Positions 2,122-62,145 of a DNA stretch of 64,000 nucleotides are shown here, piece after piece. This stretch comes from Spirochaetota bacterium (GTDB lineage Bacteria > Spirochaetota > UBA4802 > UBA5550). The notes beneath the pieces are model-generated. The model was given only the letters and a program-made list of their open reading frames with translations, did not search any database and had not been told where the DNA came from. Position numbers and translations under genes: made by a program. The DNA lies in NCBI GenBank assembly GCA_036848375.1, contig DAIUKG010000001.1, positions 128,110 through 192,109 on the forward strand. The letters run 5' to 3'. The stretch's first letter is position 1, and every line of letters begins with the position of its first letter.

Positions 2122-2973
2122 ATGAAATTATTGAAAATAACACTTCTTTCTTTAATATTTAGTACACTTATACAATTGCCGGCTTTTCCACTTTCAACCG
2201 CTGCAAAAGCTCAAAATGATTACAACTTCACCCTTGATAAAATCAGAGTGCTATATATCATTATTGAGAACTTCGGCAATGATGAAATTAAAAGTCAATA
2301 TAATCAGGTCAAGAGCCTTTTCCAGGAATCCGGTGAAAGCCTTTATGGCCAAAATTATTTCGATTCATATGAAAAATTTCGAAAATTAAAAACAGAGTTG
2401 ATCATCCTTTTTGAAAAGCTGGCAGTGCAGTATCTTAAACGTACCAAAACAATTCTTGATTCAACCGCGAAAAATTCCTTTGACATCCTTATTAATTACA
2501 GCAAAAAAGGCGGCCTTGCCGCATATTTCACTCGTGCCTATGATCCTCTTAAAGATGTGAAGCCATATGATGAAAAAGAATATCACCTTTTTTATAACCG
2601 GGAATACATTGAAAATTACATGAAAGAGGGTTACAAGCAATACCATCGTGCAAAAAATATATTTAATGACCCAGAAATTGAATACACAAAAAAAAGAAAA
2701 AATCTGCCTTCAGAAAGTTTAAACTTTATCATCTCCCAGTATAGTACCGTCATAGATGTGTGCAGAGAATCAAAACAATACGGTGTCGAAATTTATAAGA
2801 TATTAAACAACAGCAAGCTTGGAGAAAGTATCATCAAATACAACATCAGGGCCGACAGAATTGATCCTGTTTTTGATGGGAGGATTCCCGATGAATATAA
2901 AGTTGATGCCAATGACAATCTAAAACTGATACACTCGGTTGAATTAAAGAAAATCGCAAAATACCAGCAATAA
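2122..2973 (+). CDS. secreted hypothetical protein (signal peptide)
   Basis: 283 aa; hydrophobic N-terminus MKLLKITLLSLIFSTLIQLPAFPLSTAAKA; Lys/Tyr-rich, no recognisable domain. Confidence 0.5.
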   Translation: MKLLKITLLSLIFSTLIQLPAFPLSTAAKAQNDYNFTLDKIRVLYIIIENFGNDEIKSQYNQVKSLFQESGESLYGQNYFDSYEKFRKLKTELIILFEKLAVQYLKRTKTILDSTAKNSFDILINYSKKGGLAAYFTRAYDPLKDVKPYDEKEYHLFYNREYIENYMKEGYKQYHRAKNIFNDPEIEYTKKRKNLPSESLNFIISQYSTVIDVCRESKQYGVEIYKILNNSKLGESIIKYNIRADRIDPVFDGRIPDEYKVDANDNLKLIHSVELKKIAKYQQ

Positions 2974-3003
2974 AAAAATCCGCACTTAAGTGCGGATTTT
3001 TTC
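2974..3003. terminator. bidirectional rho-independent terminator (AAAAAAATCCGCAC-TTAA-GTGCGGATTTTTT)
   Basis: 8-bp GC-containing stem, 4-nt loop, flanked by A-run and T-run directly after the stop at 2973. Confidence 0.6.
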
Positions 3004-3072
3004 TTTTATTATAATAAGGGAACCTCTATAAATTACATTTTTGATGTTCCCTTGTGGGCACATTATCTGATA

Positions 3073-3116
3073 AAATCAGGAGTTATCATATTTGATAATA
3101 ATGAAACTCCTGATTT
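3073..3116 (-). terminator. hairpin downstream of rplQ (12-bp stem AAATCAGGAGTT/AACTCCTGATTT, 20-nt loop)
   Basis: perfect 12-bp inverted repeat 21 nt after the rplQ stop, followed on minus strand by UUUU. Confidence 0.4.
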
Positions 3117-3136
3117 TTAGAGGTGCCCATAATAAA

Positions 3137-3607
3137 TTATTTATCTTTTTCTTTCGACTTTGCTTTTTTATCCTTTTTGTCTTTTTTTTCTTCTTTTACT
3201 TCTGGGGCGGATGTTTTCGGTTTTTTCTCCACAAGTTCAAGAATGGCCATTTCAGCCGCATCACCGGGTCTTTGACCAATCAGATAAATTCTTGTATACC
3301 CGCCATTTCTGTCTTTATTCCGAATTGCAATTTCTTCAAAAAGTTTTTTTACGATATCACGGTCATTGATATATTTCATCACTTCCCGCTTATTGTGAAG
3401 CTTTTTTGCAGCCTGGTCATCGGCAAGCACAAGATTTTTTTTCGCTCTTGTTATAAGACGCTCAGATATTTTTTTTAATTCTTTTCCCTTTTCTTTAGTG
3501 GTAACGATCCTTTCATGATCAAAAAAAGACGTTACCATATTATTATACATAGCTTTTCTATGCGCGTGAGTTCTTCCTAACTGACGTACACTATTCCTTT
3601 TTCGCAT
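3137..3607 (-). CDS. rplQ: 50S ribosomal protein L17 (bL17) with Lys-rich C-terminal tail
   Basis: 156 aa; MRKRNSVRQLGRTHAHRKAM N-terminus typical of L17; ends KKDKKDKKAKSKEKDK. Confidence 0.95.
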   Translation of the reverse strand: MRKRNSVRQLGRTHAHRKAMYNNMVTSFFDHERIVTTKEKGKELKKISERLITRAKKNLVLADDQAAKKLHNKREVMKYINDRDIVKKLFEEIAIRNKDRNGGYTRIYLIGQRPGDAAEMAILELVEKKPKTSAPEVKEEKKDKKDKKAKSKEKDK

Positions 3608-3619
3608 GAGTAAACTCCA

Positions 3620-4597
3620 TTATTCCTTTAATCCAAGACTTAAATGATATTGCTCAAGTTTTTCCTTAATTTCTTTTAAAACCATATCACTGAAGTGCTT
3701 TGACTTTCTCAATTCATCCTCGGTTTTCTTTACTAATTGATCAATTGTTGATATATCAAGGCTTTTCAAAGTGTTATATGAACGAACCGAAAGTTCAATT
3801 TCATCAATAGATTTACCCAGAAGTGATTTAAGTTTCTCCTGATTTTCATCAACCAGTTCGATCTCTTCTTCAACTTCCTCTTCGAAATTGATAAAAATCG
3901 TCATATGGTCTTTTATAATTTTAGCAGCATACGCTAAAGCATCTTCCGGAGAAATTGAGCCATCGGTCCATATTTCAAGGATCAATTTGTCAAAGTCTGT
4001 GCGCTGGCCCACTCGTGTATCTTCTACCTTTACATTTACCTTCTTAATAGGTGTAAAAATCGAATCGATAGGTATAACGCCGACAGTCTCCGTATTTTTT
4101 TTATTGATCTCGGCAGGAACATAACCCTTGCCCCGCTCAATCTGAACTTCCATGTCAATCTTGCCGTTGGCGTTCAGCGTGGCTATCTTTATTTCAGGGT
4201 TCATTACAGAAATATCCGGGTCGATGTTAAAATCCTGGCCGGTCAAATCGCCTGCGCCCTCTTTAATGATATGGATGACCTTGGCCATCTCACCTTCATA
4301 CTTGACCCTGAGTTTCTTTAAATTTAAAATGATCCTGGTTACGTCCTCATAAACTCCTTCAATGACACCGAATTCATGGGGAACACCTTCGATCTTTATC
4401 GCAGTTATTGCTGCTCCTTCTATTGATGACAGCAACACTCTTCTCAAAGAATTTCCGATTGTTAGACCATATCCTTTTTCAAAAGGTTCGGCGATAAAAC
4501 GCCCATAATCCGGTTGTAACTCATCATGTTCAAAAAGGATCTTGCTTGGTCTTTTAAAGCCCTTTAATAAATTTCTTGGGGCCATTGATACCTCCAA
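3620..4597 (-). CDS. rpoA: DNA-directed RNA polymerase subunit alpha
   Basis: 325 aa; N-terminal dimerisation domain and C-terminal CTD (HhH) typical of RpoA; position after rpsD. Confidence 0.96.
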   Translation of the reverse strand: MEVSMAPRNLLKGFKRPSKILFEHDELQPDYGRFIAEPFEKGYGLTIGNSLRRVLLSSIEGAAITAIKIEGVPHEFGVIEGVYEDVTRIILNLKKLRVKYEGEMAKVIHIIKEGAGDLTGQDFNIDPDISVMNPEIKIATLNANGKIDMEVQIERGKGYVPAEINKKNTETVGVIPIDSIFTPIKKVNVKVEDTRVGQRTDFDKLILEIWTDGSISPEDALAYAAKIIKDHMTIFINFEEEVEEEIELVDENQEKLKSLLGKSIDEIELSVRSYNTLKSLDISTIDQLVKKTEDELRKSKHFSDMVLKEIKEKLEQYHLSLGLKE

Positions 4598-5746: not shown

Positions 5747-6118
5747 TTATTTCTTCTTCTTACCTAAAGATGTTTTTTTATACCCTTTTCGCGTCCGAGC
5801 GTTATTTTTCGTGTTTTGTCCTCTTACCGGTAAACTGCGTCTATGGCGTATTCCTCTATAACATCCAATATCCATCAAGCGCTTGATATTCATTGCTATT
5901 TCAGTTCTTAGATCACCTTCAACTTTTGTTGTGCTCTCAATTGTTTTTCGCACCTGGTTAATTTCTTCGTCTGTCAGATCCTTAACTCTTTTATCAGGGT
6001 CGACATTTGCTTTTTCTAAAATCCTTTGAGACATAGTAAAGCCTATGCCATAAATATACGTTAATGCGACTTCCAAGCGCTTATTATTTGGTAAATCAAC
6101 TCCAGCAATCCTCGCCAT
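5747..6118 (-). CDS. rpsM: 30S ribosomal protein S13
   Basis: 123 aa; [11 protein letters not shown]-terminus typical of uS13. Confidence 0.96.
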
Positions 6119-51616: not shown

Positions 51617-54202
51617 TTATTTGTTGGTAAATACCAGATTCTGCCCGTCCGAATCAATGGATATCTTCTGGTCGGATGTCACATTACCGCTCAGAAGTTT
51701 TACTGAAAGCGGGTTGAGCAGATGGCGCTGGATCGAGCGCTTTAACGGCCTGGCGCCGAACTGCGGATCGAACCCGTCTTTCACCAGAAACTCCATGGCC
51801 TTCTTCGTCATGGTCATGGATATGCCGCGCTCCTTCAAGCGTTCAACCACCTGGACAAGCTGGATTTTCACGATTTCCTTAATATTATCCTCGCTGAGCG
51901 GATTAAAAATGATAATCTCGTCAACCCTGTTCAGGAACTCGGGCTTGAAATTCATTTTCAATTCCTGTTCCATTCCCTTGCGCCGTTCCTCCATCGGTAT
52001 CGATTCATTCCCGATATAGGCTGTACCGATGTTGGAAGTCATCACGATGAGCGTGTTTTTAAAATCGACAGACCTTCCCTTCGAATCAGTAAGCCGCCCT
52101 TCATCCAGTATCTGCAGAAAAATATTGAACACGTCATGATGGGCCTTTTCAATTTCATCAAAAAGGATGACGGAATAGGGCCTTCTTCTGACCGCTTCGG
52201 TGAGCTGACCGCCTTCATCGTAGCCGACATATCCCGGAGGCGCGCCGATAAGCCTTGCAACAGAATGCTTTTCCATGTACTCAGACATGTCAATGCGCAC
52301 AATGGCTTTCTCGTCATTAAAGAGAAACTCGGCAACCGCCTTTGCCGTTTCGGTTTTTCCGACTCCCGTGGGCCCGAGAAAAATAAAAGTCCCCACAGGC
52401 CTGTTCGGGTCAGCAAGCCCTGAACGGGACCGCCTTACCGCGTCAGAGATGGCGCTCACCGCGGCGTCCTGCCCCACGACCCGCTGTTTCAGAATGCTTT
52501 CCATGCTGACCAGCTTTTCCTTTTCTCCCTCGAGCATCTTCGAAACCGGGATTCCCGTCCAGCGTGAAACAACAGCGGCAATCTCCTGCTCGGTAACTTC
52601 TTCTTTAAGCAGGATGCTGTCCTTCTGAAGCCCCTTGAGCTTTTCGTTCGCCTGGTTGAGTTTCTTTTCGAGCTCCGCGATTTTTCCGTAACGGATTTCT
52701 GCAACGAGGTTCAGGTTCCCTTCCCGTTCCGCTTTCTGTTCCTGGAGCCTGAGGTTTTCAATCTCCTCCTTTATTTTTCTGATATCCGTAATGATCGACT
52801 TTTCGTTTTTCCACTGCGCGACAAGGCCGTTTTTCTTTTCATTCAGGTTCGCCAGGTCCTCTTCAATCTTAGAAAGCCGCTCCTTGGACGCCTTGTCCTT
52901 TTCCTTCTTTAACGCCTCACGTTCAATGCTGAGCTGCCGGATCTTCCTCTCCAGGTCATCGATATCAATCGGCATTGAATCGATTTCCATTTTTATCAGG
53001 GACGCCGACTCGTCAATCAGGTCAACCGCCTTGTCCGGCAGAAAGCGGTCGGTGATATACCGGTCCGAAAGAATGGCGGCGGCAACAACCGCGGAATCAG
53101 AAATCCGGACACCGTGGTGGACTTCATATTTTTCCTTGAGTCCCCGCAGGATGGCGATGGTATCCTCAACCGAAGGCTCGCTGGTATAGACCGTCTGAAA
53201 CCGGCGCTCCAGGGCCTTGTCTTTTTCGATATATTTCTGGTATTCGGCCAGGGTGGTCGCTCCCACGGCCCTGAGCTCACCGCGGGCAAGTGCGGGTTTG
53301 AGCATATTCGACGCATCCATTGATCCCTCCGCAGCGCCGGCGCCGACCAGGGTATGCAGTTCATCAATGAAAAGAATCACCTCGCCGTCTGATTCCTCAA
53401 CTTCCTGGATCACCGCTTTGAGGCGCTCTTCAAATTCGCCGCGGTACTTTGATCCGGCAACGAGCGCGCCCATATCAAGGGCCACGACCCTTTTGTTCTT
53501 CAAGTTTTCGGGCACGTCTCCGGATACGATCCTCTGTGCCAGGCCCTCGACAATGGCCGTTTTCCCGACTCCCGGCTCTCCGATAAGAACCGGGTTGTTT
53601 TTAGTCCTCCTGGTGAGGACCTGCATCACCCTTCTGATTTCCTCATCCCTGCCGATAACGGGATCGAGTTTATTGATCCTCGCCAGCCGGGTGAGGTCCC
53701 TGCTGAACCGGTCGAGGGCATTGTATTTTTCTTCAGCGTTTTCCGCATCGGCACGCTTGTTTCCGCGAATATCCATGAGGACACGAAGAATGTTTTCCCT
53801 GGTGAACCCGTGAGCATTCAGTATCCGCCTGGCCTTGCCCTGTCCCTTGTCAGAAAGGGCAAGAATCAAATGCTCGGTGCTCAGATAATTGTCTTTCAGG
53901 TTAACCGCTTCGTTCCATGCCTGGTTGAGCAGGTCCCGCAACGCGGGGGACATGACACCGCCGCCGGGGCCGGCACCGACCTGCCTCGGCAGGCCTGAAA
54001 GCGTCTGGTTAATTTCATCCTGCAAGCCGAATGTTGAAGCCCCGATCTTCTGTGCAATGGATTCGAAAATTCCTCCTTCCTGGTCAACAAGAGCCTTGAG
54101 CAGGTGTTCCGGCTGAATCTCGTAGTGGTTCATGTCTGTCGCAATATTCTGCGCAGTGCTGAATGCGTCCTGCGCTTTTAATGTCAGTTTATCCATTCTC
54201 AT
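51617..54202 (-). CDS. clpB: ATP-dependent chaperone ClpB
   Basis: 861 aa; two AAA+ modules (Walker A GEPGVGKT and GPTGVGKT), long coiled-coil middle domain, N-terminal Clp repeat. Confidence 0.95.
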
Positions 54203-54557: not shown

Positions 54558-55079
54558 TTAAAGACTTTCCAGCCTGGATTGGGCTTTATCCGCCATTTCA
54601 CGGATATAATGGAAGTGATTGATATCATCCACACAAAAATAAATAACCATATTGTCCCGGGCCAGGGATATGGAACGATCGCTGTTAAACCCCACGTATT
54701 CAGTGACTTTGGCGATTTCACTTCTGGCTGTTCTGGCGTCATTATAAATGATGATATAACATACTATATCATCACCAAAGGGGTTATCCCTGTTGGCAAT
54801 AATCGTCATATGTATTTTGTTGACCAGCCCGCTGTCGCCGCCCGGATATATTCTTCCGGTTAAATGTTTGATCGCGGCCCGGTCCATGAGCCAGGGATTA
54901 TCCTTTAAAACATTTTTTGCGAAACCGGGCACTTTTCCGAAAACAAACCCTTCAGGGACTTCACCCGAGCTTATTTTTAACTTTTCAATTACATCAGTTG
55001 AATATTCCGTACTTCCCCTGAAAACAAAGATAAAGGCCACCATTATGATAACCAGCAGACTGACATATCCTTTTTTCAT
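54558..55079 (-). CDS. hypothetical exported/membrane-anchored protein
   Basis: 173 aa; N-terminal hydrophobic segment MKKGYVSLLVIIMVAFIFVF; no recognisable domain. Confidence 0.45.
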   Translation of the reverse strand: MKKGYVSLLVIIMVAFIFVFRGSTEYSTDVIEKLKISSGEVPEGFVFGKVPGFAKNVLKDNPWLMDRAAIKHLTGRIYPGGDSGLVNKIHMTIIANRDNPFGDDIVCYIIIYNDARTARSEIAKVTEYVGFNSDRSISLARDNMVIYFCVDDINHFHYIREMADKAQSRLESL

Positions 55080-55248
55080 GTATTCGCTCCTTTATATTAA
55101 ACACTCAGAGTTTTTACCAGGCTAACAATGTATTTTATTCCATCTGGCATGTTCCAATCCCAATATCGGCTGTTTCCTTAAAAATTATCAGATAATTTCT
55201 TATATTAATAAACAACATTATTTTTTTATTGCGACATAATATTTTTTA

Positions 55249-55277
55249 TTGACGGATCATTTACTCGGGGTTATTAT
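55249..55277 (+). promoter_or_regulatory. candidate promoter for nrdD (TTGACG-17-TATTAT)
   Basis: good -35/-10 pair ~130 nt upstream of the nrdD start; sits next to a direct repeat TTTTTTATTG x2. Confidence 0.4.
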
Positions 55278-55411
55278 ATGGCATACTTGATAGTCGATGT
55301 TATGTCTCTTTAGTTTGATCCGAACACTTGTTTTAATAATCAATACAAAAATTTTCATACACTAATAGATATATAAATTCTTCCAATTTTATTTTTTATC
55401 ATGGAGTCCCT

Positions 55412-57448
55412 ATGAATTCACCTGAAACCGTAATTGAATATATTCGAAAACGGGACGGAAGAATAGTTCCCTTCCAGCATGACAAAATAACCGACGCAAT
55501 TTTTAAGGCAGCGCAGGCTGTTGGAGGAAGCGATAGAATAACCGCACAATCTGTTTCAGACTCAGTATTCGGTATTTTAAGTATAATTTATAAAGACGGA
55601 CGGATCCCTACTGTTGAAAACGTCCAGGACCTTGTTGAAAAAATGCTTATCGAGCGCGGGCATGCCAAAGTTGCCAAGGCATATATTATATACCGCGAGC
55701 AGCACCGAAAAATTCGTGAAGGAAAAAGTCTGCTCAATGAAGGCCTCAAACTCATTGAAGACTATCTTGACCGCTCCGACTGGCGGGTGAATGAAAACAG
55801 CAACATGAGCTACTCGCTTCAGGGCCTCAACAATCATATCGCGACCGCCATTACCGCCAAATACTGGCTTGAAAGGATTTATCCCCCTGAGATACGAGAC
55901 GCCCATATCAACTGCGACCTTCACATCCACGACCTCGGGCTTCTTTCGGCATACTGTGTGGGCTGGGACTTAAAGGACCTTCTGTTAAAGGGATTCGGAG
56001 GAGTCCCGGGAAAAGTCGAAAGCAGGCCCGCAAAGCATCTCCGAAGCGCGCTGGGGCAGATAGTGAATTTTTTCTACACGCTTCAGGGAGAATCAGCGGG
56101 AGCGCAGGCCTTTGCCAATTTCGACACCTATCTCGCACCGTTCATCCGTTATGACAACATGGCATATGAGGATGTTAAACAATGCCTTCAGGAATTCATC
56201 TTCAACATGAACATCCCGACCAGGGTCGGTTTCCAGACCCCTTTTACCAACGTGACCATGGACCTCACGGTTCCCCGGAACATAGCTGAAGAGTATATCA
56301 TCATCGGCGGAGAACCGCAGGATGTCACATACGGTGATTTTCAAAACGAGATGGACCTGTTCAATGAAGCCTTTGCTGAATGCATGTCCGAAGGTGACGC
56401 AAAGAACAGGATCTTCACCTTTCCCATCCCCACCTATAATATCACCAGGGATTTTGACTGGGACTCAAACAGATACGACCGTCTGTGGACCATGACCGCT
56501 CAATACGGAATTCCTTATTTCGCCAATTTCATTAATTCCGACATGGATCCTGAAGACGCCCGTTCCATGTGCTGCAGGCTTCGCCTTGATAACCGAGAGC
56601 TCAGAAAAAAAGGCGGCGGACTCTTTGGCGCGAACCCGTTGACCGGCAGTATCGGCGTTGTTACGATCAACATGCCGAGGCTCGCGCATAAATCAAAAAA
56701 TGAGCAGGAATTTTTCTCTGAGCTGGAACGCCTCATGCTAATGGCAAAAAAATCCCTGGAAATAAAGCGGAAGGTGCTTGAAAACTTCACTGAAAGCAAC
56801 CTGTATCCATACACCAAATATTACCTTTCCGGAATTTTCGAGCGCAACAAGAAATACTGGGTAAACCATTTCTCCACAATCGGGCTTGTTGGCATGAACG
56901 AGGCCTGTATTAATTTTCTTAACACGGACATTTCGTCAATTGAAGGAAAGGATTTTGTCGTAAAGGTCCTGGACTTTATGCGCGACCGGATAATGAAATT
57001 CCAGGAGGAAACCGGGAACTTCTATAATCTTGAAGCAACACCGGCCGAAGGCGTCACCTACCGTTTCGCGAAGCATGACAAGGAAACCTATCCTGAAATT
57101 AAAACAGCGGGTGAATTTGATCCGTATTACACAAACTCGGTTCATCTTCCGGTTGGCCACACCGAAGACCTCTTCGACGTTCTTGACCATCAGGATGAAC
57201 TCCAAACCCGCTTCACCGGAGGGACTGTTGTTCACCTCTTTATTGGTGAAAAAATAAATGAAATATCCATTGTTAAAAAACTGGTCAGAAAGATTGCTGA
57301 GAATTATGCGCTTCCCTATTTTACCATAACACCGACTTTCAGCATCTGCCCTATTCATGGATATATTCCCGGTTCACACAAGTACTGCCCCTACGATCAC
57401 ACTATCGAAGAGTTAAGGAAATACGGCATTGAGGTTGAGTTGAAATAG
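55412..57448 (+). CDS. nrdD: anaerobic ribonucleoside-triphosphate reductase NrdD (class III), apparently lacking the C-terminal glycyl-radical loop
   Basis: 678 aa; N-terminal ATP-cone; SMCCRL and GGGLFGANPLTGSIGVVTINMPRLA motifs of NrdD; C-terminus ends in a Cys/His cluster (CPIHGYIPGSHKYCPYDH) without the RVxGY...WNxGK consensus. Confidence 0.9.
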   Translation: MNSPETVIEYIRKRDGRIVPFQHDKITDAIFKAAQAVGGSDRITAQSVSDSVFGILSIIYKDGRIPTVENVQDLVEKMLIERGHAKVAKAYIIYREQHRKIREGKSLLNEGLKLIEDYLDRSDWRVNENSNMSYSLQGLNNHIATAITAKYWLERIYPPEIRDAHINCDLHIHDLGLLSAYCVGWDLKDLLLKGFGGVPGKVESRPAKHLRSALGQIVNFFYTLQGESAGAQAFANFDTYLAPFIRYDNMAYEDVKQCLQEFIFNMNIPTRVGFQTPFTNVTMDLTVPRNIAEEYIIIGGEPQDVTYGDFQNEMDLFNEAFAECMSEGDAKNRIFTFPIPTYNITRDFDWDSNRYDRLWTMTAQYGIPYFANFINSDMDPEDARSMCCRLRLDNRELRKKGGGLFGANPLTGSIGVVTINMPRLAHKSKNEQEFFSELERLMLMAKKSLEIKRKVLENFTESNLYPYTKYYLSGIFERNKKYWVNHFSTIGLVGMNEACINFLNTDISSIEGKDFVVKVLDFMRDRIMKFQEETGNFYNLEATPAEGVTYRFAKHDKETYPEIKTAGEFDPYYTNSVHLPVGHTEDLFDVLDHQDELQTRFTGGTVVHLFIGEKINEISIVKKLVRKIAENYALPYFTITPTFSICPIHGYIPGSHKYCPYDHTIEELRKYGIEVELK

Positions 57449-57451
57449 TAA

Positions 57452-57483
57452 ACACCTGTGAGTAAATACAGGGGTGTTTTTTT
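57452..57483 (+). terminator. terminator-like hairpin immediately after nrdD
   Basis: ACACCTGT-N8-ACAGGGGTGT (2-nt bulge) followed by TTTTTTT, 4 nt after the stop. Confidence 0.5.
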
Positions 57484-57566
57484 GTGACATAAAATGTTTA
57501 TTTATAAATGAAAAATTTCGACAATAATAACAAATAAAAAAATTAATATAACGTAAAGGTTTTACC

Positions 57567-57746
57567 ATGAAAAAAACTGAATTAAAAATGCCGGTTGAAG
57601 TTTATTCACGAGTCGTGGGTTATTTCAGGCCGGTCAATCAGTGGAACAAAGGCAAACAGGAAGAGTTCAGGGAAAGAAAGGAAATTTCTCTTACAAGTTT
57701 GCACAATTTCATTTTCAGTGCTGATCTCGCACAGAAAGTTTACTGA
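57567..57746 (+). CDS. stand-alone NrdD glycyl-radical-domain mini-protein, copy A (59 aa)
   Basis: not in ORF track; MKKTELKMPVEVYSRVVGYFRPVNQWNKGKQEEFRERKE... carries the RVxGY glycyl-radical motif and the WNxGK-xxE tail of class III RNR C-termini. Confidence 0.6.
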   Translation: MKKTELKMPVEVYSRVVGYFRPVNQWNKGKQEEFRERKEISLTSLHNFIFSADLAQKVY

Positions 57747-57800
57747 ATAAATACCGACAATTTTTCTTAAACGACATAAATTTTATAAAAGGAGTATACC

Positions 57801-57974
57801 ATGAAAAAAACTGAATTAAAAGTTCCGGTTGAAGTTTATTCACGCGTAGCTGGCTATTTCAGGCCGGTCAATCAGTGGAATAAAGGCAAACAGGAAGAAT
57901 TCAGGGAAAGGAAAGAATACGTACTGCCAAACATGGAAAATATTTCTGTATATGAATATCAGGGGAATCTATAA
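57801..57974 (+). CDS. stand-alone NrdD glycyl-radical-domain mini-protein, copy B (57 aa)
   Basis: AAGGAG SD; 38 of its first 40 residues are identical to copy A (RVAGY instead of RVVGY), with a different C-terminal tail; its last 23 nt overlap the nrdG start. Confidence 0.6.
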   Translation: MKKTELKVPVEVYSRVAGYFRPVNQWNKGKQEEFRERKEYVLPNMENISVYEYQGNL

Positions 57975-58650
57975 AACAACACTCATCGACTACCCCGGAA
58001 GAATAAGCACTGCTATTTTTACCGGGGGATGCAATTTGAGATGCAGGTATTGCCACAATCCGGGTCTTGTTCTGCCAAGCAATGAAAACAATTCTTTTAC
58101 CGAAGACGATATTTTTGAGCTTCTGAAAAAAAGAAAACATCTGATTGAAGGGGTCACCATTTCCGGGGGAGAGCCGACGCTGAACAGGGATCTTGACGAG
58201 TTTATTGCAAAAATAAAACTACTCGGATTCGCGGTTAAACTGGACACCAACGGTCTCAAACCCGAGGTAATTGCGCACCTCATAAGCGGGAATCTTCTTG
58301 ATTATGTTGCCGTGGATGTAAAAACATCACCTGATAAATACAGAAATCTGACCGGGAAAGACGTAAATTTTTCGACCATTGTTGATACAATCAATATCCT
58401 GCGTGAAAGCGGCATCAAGTATGAAGTACGCACAACCTGTGTGCCTGATTATGTTACCATAGAAGATTTTCATGCAATCAAAGAATCAATTGGATATGTA
58501 CACCGATATCAGCTTCAGCAGTTCGTTCCTGATCATAACCTCATTGATAACAATTTAAGGTCACTCCAGCCCTATCCGGTAAAAGTATTGTTTGAATTTC
58601 AAAAATTTGTTCAGACCTTTTCAGATAACTGTGAAATCCGGGGCATTTAA
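57952..58650 (+). CDS. nrdG: anaerobic ribonucleotide reductase-activating radical-SAM protein NrdG
   Basis: 232 aa; GGCNLRCRYCHN CxxxCxxC radical-SAM cluster motif near the N-terminus; directly downstream of nrdD. Confidence 0.88.
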   Translation: MNIRGIYKTTLIDYPGRISTAIFTGGCNLRCRYCHNPGLVLPSNENNSFTEDDIFELLKKRKHLIEGVTISGGEPTLNRDLDEFIAKIKLLGFAVKLDTNGLKPEVIAHLISGNLLDYVAVDVKTSPDKYRNLTGKDVNFSTIVDTINILRESGIKYEVRTTCVPDYVTIEDFHAIKESIGYVHRYQLQQFVPDHNLIDNNLRSLQPYPVKVLFEFQKFVQTFSDNCEIRGI

Positions 58651-58660
58651 CGGCCCCTTT
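58635..58660 (+). terminator. terminator-like hairpin at the nrdG stop
   Basis: GGGGC-ATTTAACG-GCCCC followed by TTTTATCTTT. Confidence 0.4.
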
Positions 58661-58777
58661 TATCTTTCCAGCTTCCAGACGTTAAATTCTTCAATTAATT
58701 ATTGACATTACATTATATTGTTTTTATGGAGCAAAGAAGCATTTCTTTACATTGAGTACGATAATCAGGAATTACCA

Positions 58778-59275
58778 ATGACCATATTAAAAAAATCTTT
58801 TTTCACGGCATTACTCCTGTTCTTCCTCAATCCTGTTTTTTCACAGGATCAGGATAAACAGCTCGGTACGGTTTATCAAATAAACCGCTCAAACCAGGAA
58901 ATTGTCGTAGCATCGCCACGGGCAGGCCTTCTCTTTAAAATGGGAGACCTGGTTTATGTTCCTACAGATGATAAAAACGTCATCCTTACCGTGACCTTCC
59001 CCATGCAGACCGTCGCACGCTGCAAAATCGCAAAAAGCCATCAGAAATACGGTGATGAAATTAAAAAAGGAATGCCCGTTTTTCGATATATACCGGGAGA
59101 CACCCTGAATTCTCTGCAAAAAGATTTTGAACGCATTGATGAGATCAGGCTTTACAATGGAAGGATTATCCGCGGAGCCATAATATCACGCGATGGAGAA
59201 TTCCTGATCCTTACACCGACAGGAAAGATAAAAATCAACGAAAACCAGATCAAAAACATTCGGATCATACGCTGA
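58778..59275 (+). CDS. secreted hypothetical protein
   Basis: start at MTILKKSFFTALLLFFLNPVFS (AGGA SD) rather than the upstream ATG; 165 aa; no recognisable domain. Confidence 0.5.
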   Translation: MTILKKSFFTALLLFFLNPVFSQDQDKQLGTVYQINRSNQEIVVASPRAGLLFKMGDLVYVPTDDKNVILTVTFPMQTVARCKIAKSHQKYGDEIKKGMPVFRYIPGDTLNSLQKDFERIDEIRLYNGRIIRGAIISRDGEFLILTPTGKIKINENQIKNIRIIR

Positions 59276-59301: not shown

Positions 59302-59913
59302 TTATGTTGCTGGTTTTTCGTTTACACGTTTTTCAATTCCGCGGCCGACGATGTCAGCCATGAATGTTCTGAAATCAGAATCGCTTATATTGAGATAATC
59401 GAGTATCCCGAGCTTTTTATACTGGAGCATTCCTTCCGTGACTGCCGCAAGGAATATGGAAAGCTTTTTCGGGTCAATATCCCTGAAAATTCCCTGGTCG
59501 ATCCCCATCTGAATGGGGTCTTCACTCATATATATCACCTCTTTGAACCTTTCAACCACGACTTGAATATCATCCCCCCCTGGATCATAATCCGCTTTCA
59601 CTTCCATGAGGATGTTATAATAGTCGCGGTGTTCAGAAAAAAATTCAATATAGGTATCATAGGTCGAAATGAGTTTCTGATTGGGAGTTTCCCTTTCAGC
59701 CATGCGCTGCCTGAACTTGCTTACCAGCAGGTCAATAGCCTCCAGGCAGATTGCCTTGTAGATGTCCTTTTTATTGTGAAAATGAAAATATACGGCACCG
59801 GTTGTGAGGCGCGCCTTTGCGGCAATAGCGCGTATTGATATGCCGTTAAACCCGTACCGGGGAAAAAGCAAACGCGCCGTTTCAAGTATTTTCTCTCTGC
59901 TGTTCTTTCTCAT
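59302..59913 (-). CDS. TetR/AcrR-family transcriptional regulator
   Basis: 203 aa; N-terminal HTH GFNGISIRAIAAKARLTTGAVYFHFHNKKDIY typical of TetR_N. Confidence 0.88.
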   Translation of the reverse strand: MRKNSREKILETARLLFPRYGFNGISIRAIAAKARLTTGAVYFHFHNKKDIYKAICLEAIDLLVSKFRQRMAERETPNQKLISTYDTYIEFFSEHRDYYNILMEVKADYDPGGDDIQVVVERFKEVIYMSEDPIQMGIDQGIFRDIDPKKLSIFLAAVTEGMLQYKKLGILDYLNISDSDFRTFMADIVGRGIEKRVNEKPAT

Positions 59914-59971
59914 TCATTCATCAGCCTGGTGGAATTGTCAGCAGGGCCTTTGAAAGGCCCTGCTGCGGCTC

Positions 59972-61018
59972 TTATGCAAGCTTCACGGCAAGTTCTTTAC
60001 TGATTGTTTTTGCTTCTTTTACAGCGCTCTCAATGACTTCTTTGACCGTGACGATTTCATGGATACATCCGGTGCACTGCCCGACAAGGTGAACACCATA
60101 ATCAAGGTCGCCCCTTTCGGTTGCAGCTTTAATCTTATCAAAAGCGGTGGCCATATGCATGAGCTTGGTCATATTTTCCGGCTGGGCAAGAATTCCCAGC
60201 ATGACTTTAAGCAATGGTAGCTTCATTTCCCTGGCTATCTTGGGGCCGACAAGCATGGCCCTGATAATATTCATTCCCTGCCTGATCGACTTCTCCGAGG
60301 TTTTCGTCTTTAAAACACGGCACCAGAGGCCGTCAAAGCGGTCTGAATACAGGGTATCGTCCACTTCAGCTTTGAGGTGGGACTCTTTCGCTTTCTCATG
60401 GAGAGGGCTCTCCTTGGTTGTTGCCAGCCTGGTTCCCATACCGACACCTTCAGCGCCCAGCGCAAAAGCCGCCGCAATCCCTTTGCCGTCAGAGATGCCG
60501 CCGATCGCGACAATGGGCAGCTTGACATGTTCCTTGATGGCAGGGACAAGGCAGAACGTCGTGACCTGGCTTCCATGGGCCGCGGCCTCATTGCCGGTGA
60601 CCTGAAGGGCATCGGCTCCCTGCTTTTCGGCAGCCATTGCATGCTTAATGGTCGTTACGGTCTGAATAACTTTTCCACCGTATTTATGGGCCCTGTCGGC
60701 GATCCAGTCGCATTTGCCAAGGGATACATTGATAACCGGGACCTTCTCTTCAAGAAGGACTTCGGCGTTTTCACGCGCACCGGGCATAAGCAGTGTGGCT
60801 CCGGCGCCAAAAGGTTTATCAGTCAACTCCCTTATCCTCTTTATCGAAGCCCTTGTCTGATCAGTGCTCAAGGGCCCGGTTGCAAGCCAGCCGATGCCTC
60901 CTGCATTGCATACAGCGGCAACGAGTTCAGGGGTGCTTATCCAGCTCATTCCAGGAAGAATAATGGGGTATTTTATTCCGAATAACTGGGTAATTCTGGT
61001 TTTCATAGAATCCTCCAA
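59972..61018 (-). CDS. nitronate monooxygenase / FabK-like FMN-dependent enoyl reductase family protein
   Basis: 348 aa; N-terminal ITQLFGIKYPIILPGMSWISTPELVAAVCNAGGIG typical of the NMO/FabK TIM-barrel family. Confidence 0.75.
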   Translation of the reverse strand: MEDSMKTRITQLFGIKYPIILPGMSWISTPELVAAVCNAGGIGWLATGPLSTDQTRASIKRIRELTDKPFGAGATLLMPGARENAEVLLEEKVPVINVSLGKCDWIADRAHKYGGKVIQTVTTIKHAMAAEKQGADALQVTGNEAAAHGSQVTTFCLVPAIKEHVKLPIVAIGGISDGKGIAAAFALGAEGVGMGTRLATTKESPLHEKAKESHLKAEVDDTLYSDRFDGLWCRVLKTKTSEKSIRQGMNIIRAMLVGPKIAREMKLPLLKVMLGILAQPENMTKLMHMATAFDKIKAATERGDLDYGVHLVGQCTGCIHEIVTVKEVIESAVKEAKTISKELAVKLA

Positions 61019-61152
61019 AAAAATAATATTTCGACCCTCTCGGGAAGAATTTTCATCATCGACAATTTTGTATTACTGGCACACAATACATCTCATTCTT
61101 CGGCAGTATAATTGTCAAGCATATCATCCTGCACCATTAAGACGGATGCAGG

Positions 61153-62145
61153 TCACTTTTTAATATTTCCGGAAATCTTTGTGATCTGCTCTTCCGCTTC
61201 CTGACACATGCGCGCGAGAAGTTCCTTACAGGAAACCACATCGTGCACCAGCCCCACGCTCTGGCCGACCATCATGGGCGCGATGTCAACATCCCCCTCT
61301 GCCCAGGCCCTCTTGCATCGTTCTCCAGACATAAGGGGGATGATTTTGTCAAGACCGCCGCCGCTCATCTCAACCGCGATAATGTCCTTGACGACCTTGT
61401 TCTTGAGCGCCCGCGCCTGGAGGTTTATCGTTTTGCAGATCAGCGTCGTGTCATTTTCCTGCCTGTTAACAAGCTCCTGCCGGATGTTGTCGTGAACCGG
61501 GCATTCCTTTGTCGCTATGAACCGGGTTGCCATCATGACCCCTTCGGCGCCGAGCGTAAGGGCTGCGGCCATGGTTTTTCCGTTCGCGATCCCGCCCACG
61601 GTCACGACCGGGATATTGAGCGCTTCGGCCATGCGTGAAGTGAGCACCATGGTCGTCACATCATCATTAAGGGGATGGCCCCCCTCCTCTATACCTGCCG
61701 CATACACGCCGTCATAACCCACGCTCTGGGCATGCAGCCCATGCCGCACCGAGCCGAGCTTGTGGAAAAGCCTGACCCCGGCCTTTTTCAGCATTTCAAT
61801 GTATTCCATGCCGCAGGCTTTATCAATGGGCGTGCCTGATATTTCAAGTCCGGCGACCTTTTCCTCGGCGCAGACCCTGAGATACATTTTATGGGCCTCA
61901 GGCCCAATATGTACCGACGGCAGAATGGTCACATTGACCATAAACGGCTTGTCAGTGAGCTTTCTCGTCTCCTTTATGGCATTGCGGAAATCTTCTTCAG
62001 TGGGATAATTCGCCGCGGTAAGGTTTCCCAGGCCTCCCGCGTTCGAAATTGCCGCGCACAGCTGCGGAACGCAGAGCCAGTACATGGCGCCGCATATTAT
62101 AGGGTATTCAACCCCGAACATTTCAGTAATTTTGGTTTTGATCAT
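61153..62145 (-). CDS. FabK-like enoyl-[ACP] reductase II / nitronate monooxygenase family protein (paralog)
   Basis: 330 aa; ITEMFGVEYPIICGAMYWLCVPQLCAAISNAGGLG; paralogous to the downstream gene. Confidence 0.75.
   Translation of the reverse strand: MIKTKITEMFGVEYPIICGAMYWLCVPQLCAAISNAGGLGNLTAANYPTEEDFRNAIKETRKLTDKPFMVNVTILPSVHIGPEAHKMYLRVCAEEKVAGLEISGTPIDKACGMEYIEMLKKAGVRLFHKLGSVRHGLHAQSVGYDGVYAAGIEEGGHPLNDDVTTMVLTSRMAEALNIPVVTVGGIANGKTMAAALTLGAEGVMMATRFIATKECPVHDNIRQELVNRQENDTTLICKTINLQARALKNKVVKDIIAVEMSGGGLDKIIPLMSGERCKRAWAEGDVDIAPMMVGQSVGLVHDVVSCKELLARMCQEAEEQITKISGNIKK

Follow-up and report, generated by a model that had tools for sequence, protein, structure and literature searches.

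Organization of the nrd locus

We describe here an anaerobic (class III) ribonucleotide reductase (RNR) locus on a stretch of 64,000 nucleotides (nt) from a Spirochaetota bacterium (NCBI GenBank assembly GCA_036848375.1, contig DAIUKG010000001.1, positions 128,110 to 192,109 of the forward strand), which we refer to at its full length as the window. On the + strand of the window, the gene order is nrdD (55412–57448), an AT-rich spacer of 118 nt, a small gene that we term mini A (57567–57746), 54 nt, a second small gene, mini B (57801–57974), and the activase gene nrdG (57952–58650), which overlaps mini B by 23 nt. A terminator-like site at 58640–58667, found by a terminator scan, closes the operon. 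An earlier reading of this DNA, made from its letters alone and referred to below as the original prediction, had placed these genes at the same coordinates, all of which hold against the list of open reading frames (ORFs) and the raw sequence. It had further proposed that the encoded NrdD lacks its C-terminal glycyl-radical loop and that this loop is supplied in trans by the two mini-proteins (hereafter minis).

The nrdD gene encodes a large (catalytic) subunit of 678 amino acids (aa), with an ATP-cone at residues 10–99 (55439–55708; PF03477, E = 2.1e-21) and the finger-loop motif SMCCRLRL (56564–56587), which is invariant in our alignments, being unchanged across split and fused homologues (alignments A3 and A5). 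From known NrdD structures, Cys387 and Cys388 of this motif are presumed to be the thiyl-radical site. The protein scores above the curated cut-offs of the NCBIfam equivalog PRK08270 (1049 bits, cut-off 548) and of TIGR02487 (521 bits, cut-off 326), and it matches Pfam NRDD (PF13597) with an E-value of 2.6e-179; by its barrel, its finger-loop cysteines, and these scores, it is the catalytic subunit of a class III RNR. What it lacks is an RVxGY loop on the same polypeptide, as the match covers positions 1–525 of 562 in Pfam NRDD and positions 3–649 of 684 in PRK08270, where the large ORF stops. Mini A and mini B each match only positions 650–682 of PRK08270 (532–562 of Pfam NRDD), and thus, NrdD and a mini together tile the family model with neither gap nor overlap. 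The absence of the loop from NrdD and its presence on the downstream ORFs, which the original prediction had read from motifs, are borne out by the model alignment, with the break at position 649 of 684. When aligned to the NrdD of Thermotoga maritima (4coi), the large ORF covers residues 101–596, while the mini profile covers residues 613–644, including the RIVGY loop.

Near its C-terminus, the large subunit carries a variant of the zinc site (CPIHGYIPGSHKYCPYDH, 57347–57400) in which the predicted ligands are Cys, His, Cys, His in place of the Cys, His, Cys, Cys of fused relatives; the motif reads CPIH...CPYDH, with a His at the fourth ligand position and an altered spacing, as in all 55 split forms. 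In T4 NrdD, the zinc site before the radical loop is made up of four Cys. The variant site is followed by an acidic C-terminal tail that is specific to split large subunits (TIEELRKYGIEVELK, 57401–57445), and the protein ends in ...CPIHGYIPGSHKYCPYDHTIEELRKYGIEVELK, after which come TAG and TAA. The HGYIPGS segment of the large ORF was considered as a radical site and rejected: it belongs to the zinc-site motif CPxHGYxxGxH, and fused relatives have this motif in addition to an RVVGY of their own.

The minis are glycyl-radical loop proteins of 59 aa (mini A, with the Gly18 codon at 57618–57620) and 57 aa (mini B, the canonical copy, with the Gly18 codon at 57852–57854). Their loop reads EVYSRV[V/A]G18YFRPVNQWNKGKQEEF, and 17 residues, including RVxG18Y, are invariant in minis. 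A protein identical to mini A (P0001) is present in public databases, while no mini-specific family was found in Pfam, NCBIfam, or PHROG. We also considered the GYF of the loop as a hallmark of stand-alone minis and rejected it, as the nearest fused relatives have it too (53 F, 26 L, 15 Y). Finally, nrdG encodes the adjacent radical S-adenosylmethionine activase that is expected of a class III system (TIGR02495 (NrdG2), 203 bits, cut-off 131; PF04055), with its CX3CX2C cluster reading CNLRCRYC at 58030–58053 (residues 27–34).

Conservation of the split

When one genome per species was scanned with a mini profile, 544 matches were confirmed, and the best 80 loci were classified by the length of the reading frame around the radical motif together with tblastn searches using the window NrdD and NrdG. 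The majority of these loci (56/80) are split, with an nrdD that lacks the loop, a spacer, and a mini of 49–96 aa, usually with nrdG 3' of the mini. They come from Spirochaetota/Leptospirales-like metagenome-assembled genomes (MAGs) and from Thermodesulfobacteriota, including the isolate Thermodesulfatator autotrophicus S606 (L033). Fifteen loci, from the Candidate phyla radiation and Dehalococcoidales, are fused and read ...CPxHGYxxGEHxxCPxC-x5-EVYSRVVGYLRP...; the rest are minis without an nrdD nearby. The original prediction had proposed a survey of related genomes as a check, and the split is found to recur in two phyla. Among the best 120 homologues of the window NrdD (77–100% identity, 672–711 aa), the loop is absent in all.

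In a neighbor-joining (NJ) tree of the barrel region, calculated with no bootstrap, the split sequences fall into two clades, one of Spirochaetota and one of Thermodesulfobacteriota and viruses, with one fused Dehalococcoidales sequence (L072) placed between the two. The end that split large subunits have in common, CPxxH plus tail, tentatively favors a single origin of the split, with transfer.

One alternative is that the split reflects faulty sequencing or assembly, or the decay of a pseudogene, in which case the minis would be remnants of a continuous nrdD. Two relatives lend some color to this: the nrdD of the long-read contig L167 is in two pieces, called as 288 + 393 aa, probably through a long-read frameshift error, and L170, which was considered as a further split and rejected, is more likely a fused gene that has a frameshift and an insertion. 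Against it, the identical protein pair and gene order are found in 18 independently assembled contigs from different samples (SPAdes, MEGAHIT, and Logan), and chance or assembly artefact is excluded. The 118-nt spacer has stops in every frame as well as a hairpin, each mini has its own start codon and Shine-Dalgarno sequence, and the 56 split loci span two phyla and include an isolate genome. Over a 26-codon core in 61 mini genes, the proportions of synonymous and non-synonymous differences are 0.85 (pS) and 0.054 (pN), respectively, for a pN/pS of 0.064; the minis evolve under strong purifying selection. The assembly error that the original prediction had named as its own possible refutation is not borne out at this locus, and we regard the whole explanation as effectively refuted already, with a negligible probability of being correct.

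A further alternative is that the parts are joined during or after translation, whether by frameshifting, ribosome bypassing, an intron, or a split intein. There is precedent in a group I intron in T4 nrdD and in the intein domains of two related sequences (P0454 and P0487), which suggests that nrd genes are prone to intervening elements. However, no intron, riboswitch, or other RNA family was found by Rfam at 55000–59000 (E ≤ 1), and no + strand ORF of at least 30 aa lies inside the 118-nt spacer; rather than an interruption by an intron, an intein, or a homing endonuclease, the spacer contains AT-rich sequence with a hairpin only. Among relatives, the nrdD–mini spacers range from 0 to 371 nt and place the two genes in all three relative frames, which excludes a uniform recoding event. 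In almost all minis, a Shine-Dalgarno sequence of the AGGAG or GGAGG type precedes the gene's own ATG by 6–10 nt. The flanks are also too short for split inteins (a tail of 15–30 aa and a leader of 8–10 aa), and minis encoded by phages, described below, have no nrdD partner nearby. We thus hold joining of the parts to be very improbable.

Overlap with nrdG and co-adaptation of the chain ends

In 48 of the 53 mini–nrdG pairs, the 3' end of the mini overlaps the start of nrdG by 23, 38, or 50 nt. Of 51 nrdG starts, only 7 are preceded by a strong Shine-Dalgarno sequence of their own. The overlaps and the scarcity of nrdG Shine-Dalgarno sequences suggest that the mini and the activase are translationally coupled. 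The recurrent mini tails ...YEYQGNL (as in mini B) and ...YEYQRNI are the other-frame reading of the conserved N-terminus of NrdG.

It could be asked on these grounds whether the mini ORF is mainly a leader for translational coupling, or a regulator or decoy of NrdG, rather than a catalytic subunit; the conserved overlap of 23–50 nt and the lack of a strong Shine-Dalgarno sequence at most nrdG starts are what such a role would lead one to expect. A leader, however, would have no need of an invariant radical-loop sequence, and the large subunit would be left without a radical site. Moreover, neither mini A nor the phage minis are coupled to nrdG. We consider this role quite improbable.

The two chains of split loci also differ from fused relatives where they would meet. 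The second zinc knuckle is CP[YFH]xH in 55/55 split pairs and in 120/120 of the best homologues, whereas fused relatives have CPxC. The tail of the split large subunits, with the consensus [ST]xxELxx[FY]G[IV]E, is net negative in all 55 pairs (mean of −3.5), while the mini leader, the part ahead of PVEVYSR, has a net positive charge in 53 of 55 (mean of +2). The end of the large subunit and the leader of the mini are co-adapted.

Duplication of the mini gene

The two minis of the window arose by a tandem duplication (57542–57917, + strand), in which 57542–57683 and 57776–57917 form a repeat of 142 nt with 85% identity and a spacing of 234 nt. The duplication noted in the original prediction is therefore real, and the changes since then are mostly synonymous: the copies differ at 7 synonymous and 3 non-synonymous codons (pS of 0.39, pN of 0.026). 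Their first 40 residues are identical at 37 positions (M8V, V17A, and I40Y differ), rather than at 38 as had been counted. Of the Shine-Dalgarno sequences that had been assigned to each copy, that of mini B is AAGGAG, while mini A has merely a weak AAAGG. From these sequences, both copies look functional.

The related contig L161 has a tandem A'+B' pair as in the window, with an orthologue of mini A that is 86% identical, while the syntenic relatives L171–L173 (NrdD identities of 91% and 87%) have one mini with a 23-nt nrdG overlap. The single mini of L171–L173 and the pair of L161 indicate that B is ancestral and that A is a recent tandem paralogue. The tail of mini A is unconstrained by an nrdG overlap and evolves fast.

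The nrdD–mini spacer and expression

The hairpin with a run of seven T residues that the original prediction had seen between nrdD and the minis is also detected by a terminator scan (57450–57483, + strand; hairpin at 57450–57479, T run at 57477–57483) and folds at −12.1 kcal/mol (z = −2.5). Both the hairpin with its T run and a highly similar spacer are kept in L161. A canonical hairpin and T run 3' of nrdD is otherwise not seen: close relatives have GC hairpins without a T run, and most others have a spacer of 11–60 nt with just a Shine-Dalgarno sequence, which suggests that their genes form one operon. Among the related Spirochaetota, the spacers of L001, L004, L008, L009, L011, and L012 are ~100 nt long, start with TGCCGAT, and contain one or two GC-rich hairpins (e.g., CAGGGGAATCCGACATAATACGGTCCCCTG) with no T run; instead of terminating transcription, these hairpins may serve in RNA stability or processing.

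Downstream of the hairpin, the window contains a spacer element, GACATAA-N-CGACAATAATAA (57486–57530, + strand), which lies upstream of the mini gene and stands out by its conservation in the sub-clade. Across 173 loci, the GACATAA-N-CGAYAATAATAA composite occurs in this sub-clade only and always in the nrdD–mini spacer, its carriers being L161, L162/163, L171/172, and L173, in which the remaining spacer has diverged. On this conservation, the composite is a candidate internal promoter or operator. The short motif CGACATAAWWTT, found upstream of both nrdD and mini B, is not significant by itself, as it has 5 matches in the window versus 2.5 expected and 10 of 100 shuffles equal that number. 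Exact copies of CGACATAA lie at 55232–55243, upstream of nrdD, and at 57772–57783, upstream of mini B, and CGACATAA and the composite motif may represent an operator or promoter common to the nrd genes. By-eye inspection of the region upstream of nrdD revealed no convincing NrdR boxes.

The original prediction had suggested that the minis might be expressed separately from the catalytic subunit. The hairpin, T run, and spacer motif make separate transcription of the minis and nrdG plausible in this sub-lineage, while the single-operon appearance of most relatives indicates that it is not general to the family.

Structure prediction and a proposed mechanism

When predicted alone from a 38-sequence alignment, a mini shows no hairpin and has a mean predicted local distance difference test score (pLDDT) of 60 and a predicted template modelling score (pTM) of 0.22, with residues 16–18 below a pLDDT of 50. 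We then considered a joined AlphaFold2 model, in which the window NrdD is fused directly to mini B and the input alignment (A5) consists of the joined sequence, fused homologues, and split large subunits. This model has a mean pLDDT of 83 and a pTM of 0.78, and all of its top Foldseek matches are solved structures of class III RNRs. In the joined model, the mini segment is predicted to form a beta-hairpin with the glycine at its tip (strands 689–694 and 697–700), as is typical of glycyl-radical loops, followed by a helix at 706–714 (pLDDT of 76–87), while the large-subunit tail has a short helix at 665–670.

To our knowledge, glycyl-radical enzymes are thought to hold the radical glycine on the catalytic chain, with GrcA/YfiD as the sole known exception. 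At the locus studied here, the mini probably provides the neighboring NrdD with its radical loop in trans, the two making up an obligate two-subunit class III RNR that is activated by NrdG. The radical module in trans that the original prediction had envisaged is strongly supported at the comparative level by the 56 split loci out of 80, the 120 loop-less homologues out of 120, the purifying selection on the minis, and the co-adapted chain ends. We infer that the two chains form a complex and that activation takes place on the mini.

In the mechanism that we propose, NrdG, coupled in translation to mini B, would abstract a hydrogen from Gly18 of the mini using S-adenosylmethionine. The basic leader of the mini would then dock on the acidic tail of the large subunit, and its beta-hairpin would insert into the barrel by Cys387/388, generating the thiyl radical for nucleotide reduction. 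Activation in this manner would not depend on an outward swing of the loop from the barrel. Glycyl-radical proteins are cut by oxygen at their radical glycine; such damage would here cost a cheap subunit of 6–7 kDa and not the 78-kDa enzyme. Mini B would be the ancestral partner, with mini A raising or diversifying the supply, and a separate promoter behind the terminator may serve the minis and nrdG in this sub-lineage. That the split was favored as a cheap replaceable part that is also easier to activate is a possible rationale, in which we place somewhat limited trust.

A number of points weigh against this reading. The chains of the joined model are artificially linked, and its confidence is below 50 both at the glycine tip (695–697) and at the junction (678–682). 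Mini A combines its weak Shine-Dalgarno sequence with a fast-diverging tail. The terminator and internal promoter are consensus-level predictions that concern this sub-lineage only, and the rationale of repair and economy is argued by analogy with GrcA.

Stand-alone minis and phages

The minis behave as a portable module. Searching 1.84 billion representative proteins with a profile yielded 4,782 relatives of the minis at E ≤ 1e-3 and 2,069 at E ≤ 1e-10, and the best 150 of the 4,782 are all 47–109 aa in length. A scan of IMG/VR gave 104 confirmed matches, of which the best 80 (L081–L160) were inspected; 69 of these 80 are stand-alone minis, nrdD and nrdG both being absent within 6 kb. Several MAGs contain a canonical split locus plus an orphan or prophage mini.

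Some of these minis lie in clearly viral surroundings. The mini of L081 (6001–6141) is 1.3 kb from a large terminase gene (E = 5e-135), that of L083 (6001–6129) adjoins an endolysin gene, and those of L036, L018, L097, L098, L134, and L135 are directly downstream of genes for a Mu-type transposase, a MuB-like ATPase, Gam, and GemA. The orphan extra minis in Spirochaetota MAGs include L036 (4986–5243), which at 85 aa has a Cys-rich C-terminal extension, L018 (4953–5168), and L079 (4986–5147), which is near a reverse transcriptase and a recombinase. By analogy with T4 Y06I, which serves pyruvate formate-lyase (PFL), the phage minis look like an unrecognised phage auxiliary gene.

The occurrence of minis far from any nrdD, in phages and as orphans in the same MAGs, would also be in keeping with a different role, namely that the minis are GrcA-like spare parts for a full-length NrdD encoded elsewhere, with the truncated NrdD inactive or otherwise employed. 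We judge this unlikely, as 56 loci have the mini directly between a loop-less nrdD and nrdG, and the loop is missing from all 120 of the closest homologues. In addition, the loop-less NrdD retains all catalytic motifs and reaches 1049 bits on the equivalog model, and its end has been remodelled and is charge-matched to the mini leader.

Returning to the two-subunit enzyme, the phage copies lead us to a broader but tentative proposal, to which we would not give even chances: the mini may act as an exchangeable radical cartridge that is charged by NrdG off the enzyme, plugged into the loop-less subunit, lost to oxygen, and replaced. Its supply would be tuned by promoter-bearing paralogues such as mini A, and phages, including Mu-like ones, would carry their own copy to boost the synthesis of deoxyribonucleoside triphosphates by the host. 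If true, glycyl-radical enzymes other than the formate lyases would have their first example of a spare-part or trans-radical system, and class III RNRs would have an equivalent of the radical subunit that is separate in class I.

The minis are not all divided from their partner at the same point. In L169 (93–3324), an nrdD of 667 aa ending in ...GEHFECPYTNNVNSIR is followed after 293 nt by a mini of 63 aa that starts with MNKCGEKTEVYSRIVGYY; the terminus of the partner nrdD is ...ECPYTNNVNSIR, and the mini is of the KCGxxTEVYSR kind. From its sequence, L169 appears to have been split independently and at a slightly shifted position. Minis that start with KCGxxTEVYSR would carry the fourth zinc cysteine themselves, and a KCGxxTE[VI]YSR start is common to the viral minis L121, L139, L144, and L153. 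A further kind of mini includes the whole zinc ribbon. In the archaeal virus ANMV-1 (KP703175.1; L165, 2677–3111), a gene annotated as nrdD, 'anaerobic ribonucleoside triphosphate reductase', encodes 144 aa that comprise a zinc ribbon and the loop with no barrel; the paper describing this virus took the fragment as a complete oxygen-sensitive RNR (PMC4372165). The 95.7-kb viral contig L108, which groups with the Thermodesulfobacteriota split clade in the NJ tree, has both a loop-less nrdD (2507–4552) and a mini (near 6013), ~1.4 kb apart.

Comparison with known systems

The locus shares with canonical single-chain class III RNRs (those of T4, Escherichia coli, T. maritima, Prevotella copri, and Streptococcus thermophilus) the ATP-cone, the barrel, the finger-loop cysteines, a zinc-site motif, RVxGY, and an adjacent activase. 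Unlike these enzymes, it has the loop on a separate polypeptide, a His in place of Cys at the fourth zinc-ligand position (CPxxH), an acidic tail, and an overlap of mini and nrdG. A cryo-EM study of the P. copri enzyme shows a mobile glycyl-radical domain that is capable of complete disorder (PMC11226230), which fits a loop that works as a detachable piece.

Among glycyl-radical proteins, the closest parallels are the autonomous PFL cofactors GrcA/YfiD (E. coli) and Y06I (phage T4), each, like the minis, a small stand-alone protein with a glycyl-radical loop; the minis, too, would presumably be activated by the activase of their partner and work in trans. As with GrcA/YfiD, the only recognizable content of the minis (59 and 57 aa) is the loop, and as with T4 Y06I, phage-encoded versions of the NrdD-type mini exist (PMC8683613). 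However, GrcA is a PFL-type protein of 127 aa (PF01228/IPR011140), whereas the mini is NrdD-type (PF13597 in a Pfam scan at E ≤ 1) and 50–60 aa in length, and the partner of GrcA is full-length, its loop being replaced only once oxygen has cleaved it, whereas the adjacent NrdD here is without its own loop. A partner that lacks the loop makes the mini an obligate subunit and not a spare. The comparison with GrcA/YfiD drawn in the original prediction is thus apt for the mode of working, while membership in that family does not hold.

Split RNRs of other kinds are also known. The nrdA of Aeromonas phage Aeh1 is reportedly split into two genes by the homing endonuclease gene mobE, and the products are said to reassemble into an active enzyme. 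That split lies inside the barrel and stems from an inserted mobile gene, whereas the split described here detaches the loop and has a spacer with no ORF or mobile element. The split class II RNR NrdJa/NrdJb likewise has a C-terminal module, a zinc finger/redox tail, on an adjacent gene (PMC9669993). It differs in belonging to another class of RNR, in that its module serves electron delivery and not radical storage, and in the much larger size of its second chain.

RNR-wide analyses include this split class II enzyme and no split class III enzyme (PMC9669993). According to a 2026 review, spare parts are known only for formate lyases (PMC13450708), and in a 2021 study of YfiD, only YfiD and Y06I were validated, with others speculated (PMC8683613); both ask whether other glycyl-radical enzymes have spare parts (PMC8683613; PMC13450708). 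Our literature search found no description of a split NrdD or of an NrdD-type spare part. The two-polypeptide class III RNR is genuine, conserved, and apparently undescribed.

A natural split with a loop protein of ~6.5 kDa offers a system for studying activase access to a buried glycine, loop docking, and the repair of oxygen damage, for which T. autotrophicus S606 is a cultured carrier. The copies carried by phages point to an auxiliary metabolic gene of a new kind. There are also consequences for annotation, as pipelines label minis of 50–60 aa as a full "anaerobic ribonucleoside-triphosphate reductase", and surveys that require the C-terminal glycine motif could misclassify loop-less NrdDs.

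Neighboring genes and other homologues

Fused homologues of 1,000–1,350 aa (L066, L133, and L149; P0454, P0476, P0487, and P0488) match the window NrdD piecewise. Two of these, P0454 and P0487, have intein Pfam domains (PF14890, with PF14528 as well in P0454) and are intein-interrupted nrdD genes. In the fused clade, the Dehalococcoidia NrdDs of ~740 aa (P0435–P0464) have, past the loop region, a C-terminal extension of ~40 aa that ends in ...DRLSGE...LHEPMQLPLPILS.

No prophage was found around the nrd locus of the window. Its neighbors at 51617–54202 and 59302–62145, both on the − strand, are ordinary chromosomal genes encoding ClpB, a TetR regulator, and two proteins of the nitronate-monooxygenase family, and the synteny around the locus is kept in the closest relatives, L171/L172 (NrdD identity of 91%). 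Divergent from nrdD in the window is a gene for a conserved 173-aa protein of unknown function (54558–55079, − strand). In L167 (1746–3370), a 4.8-Mb Spirochaetota contig, the genes divergent from nrdD instead encode a glutaredoxin, a protein that resembles ferredoxin-thioredoxin reductase and has a rubredoxin-like domain, and a thioredoxin-like protein; these genes, which have no counterpart in the window, hint at a thiol-based reductant system.

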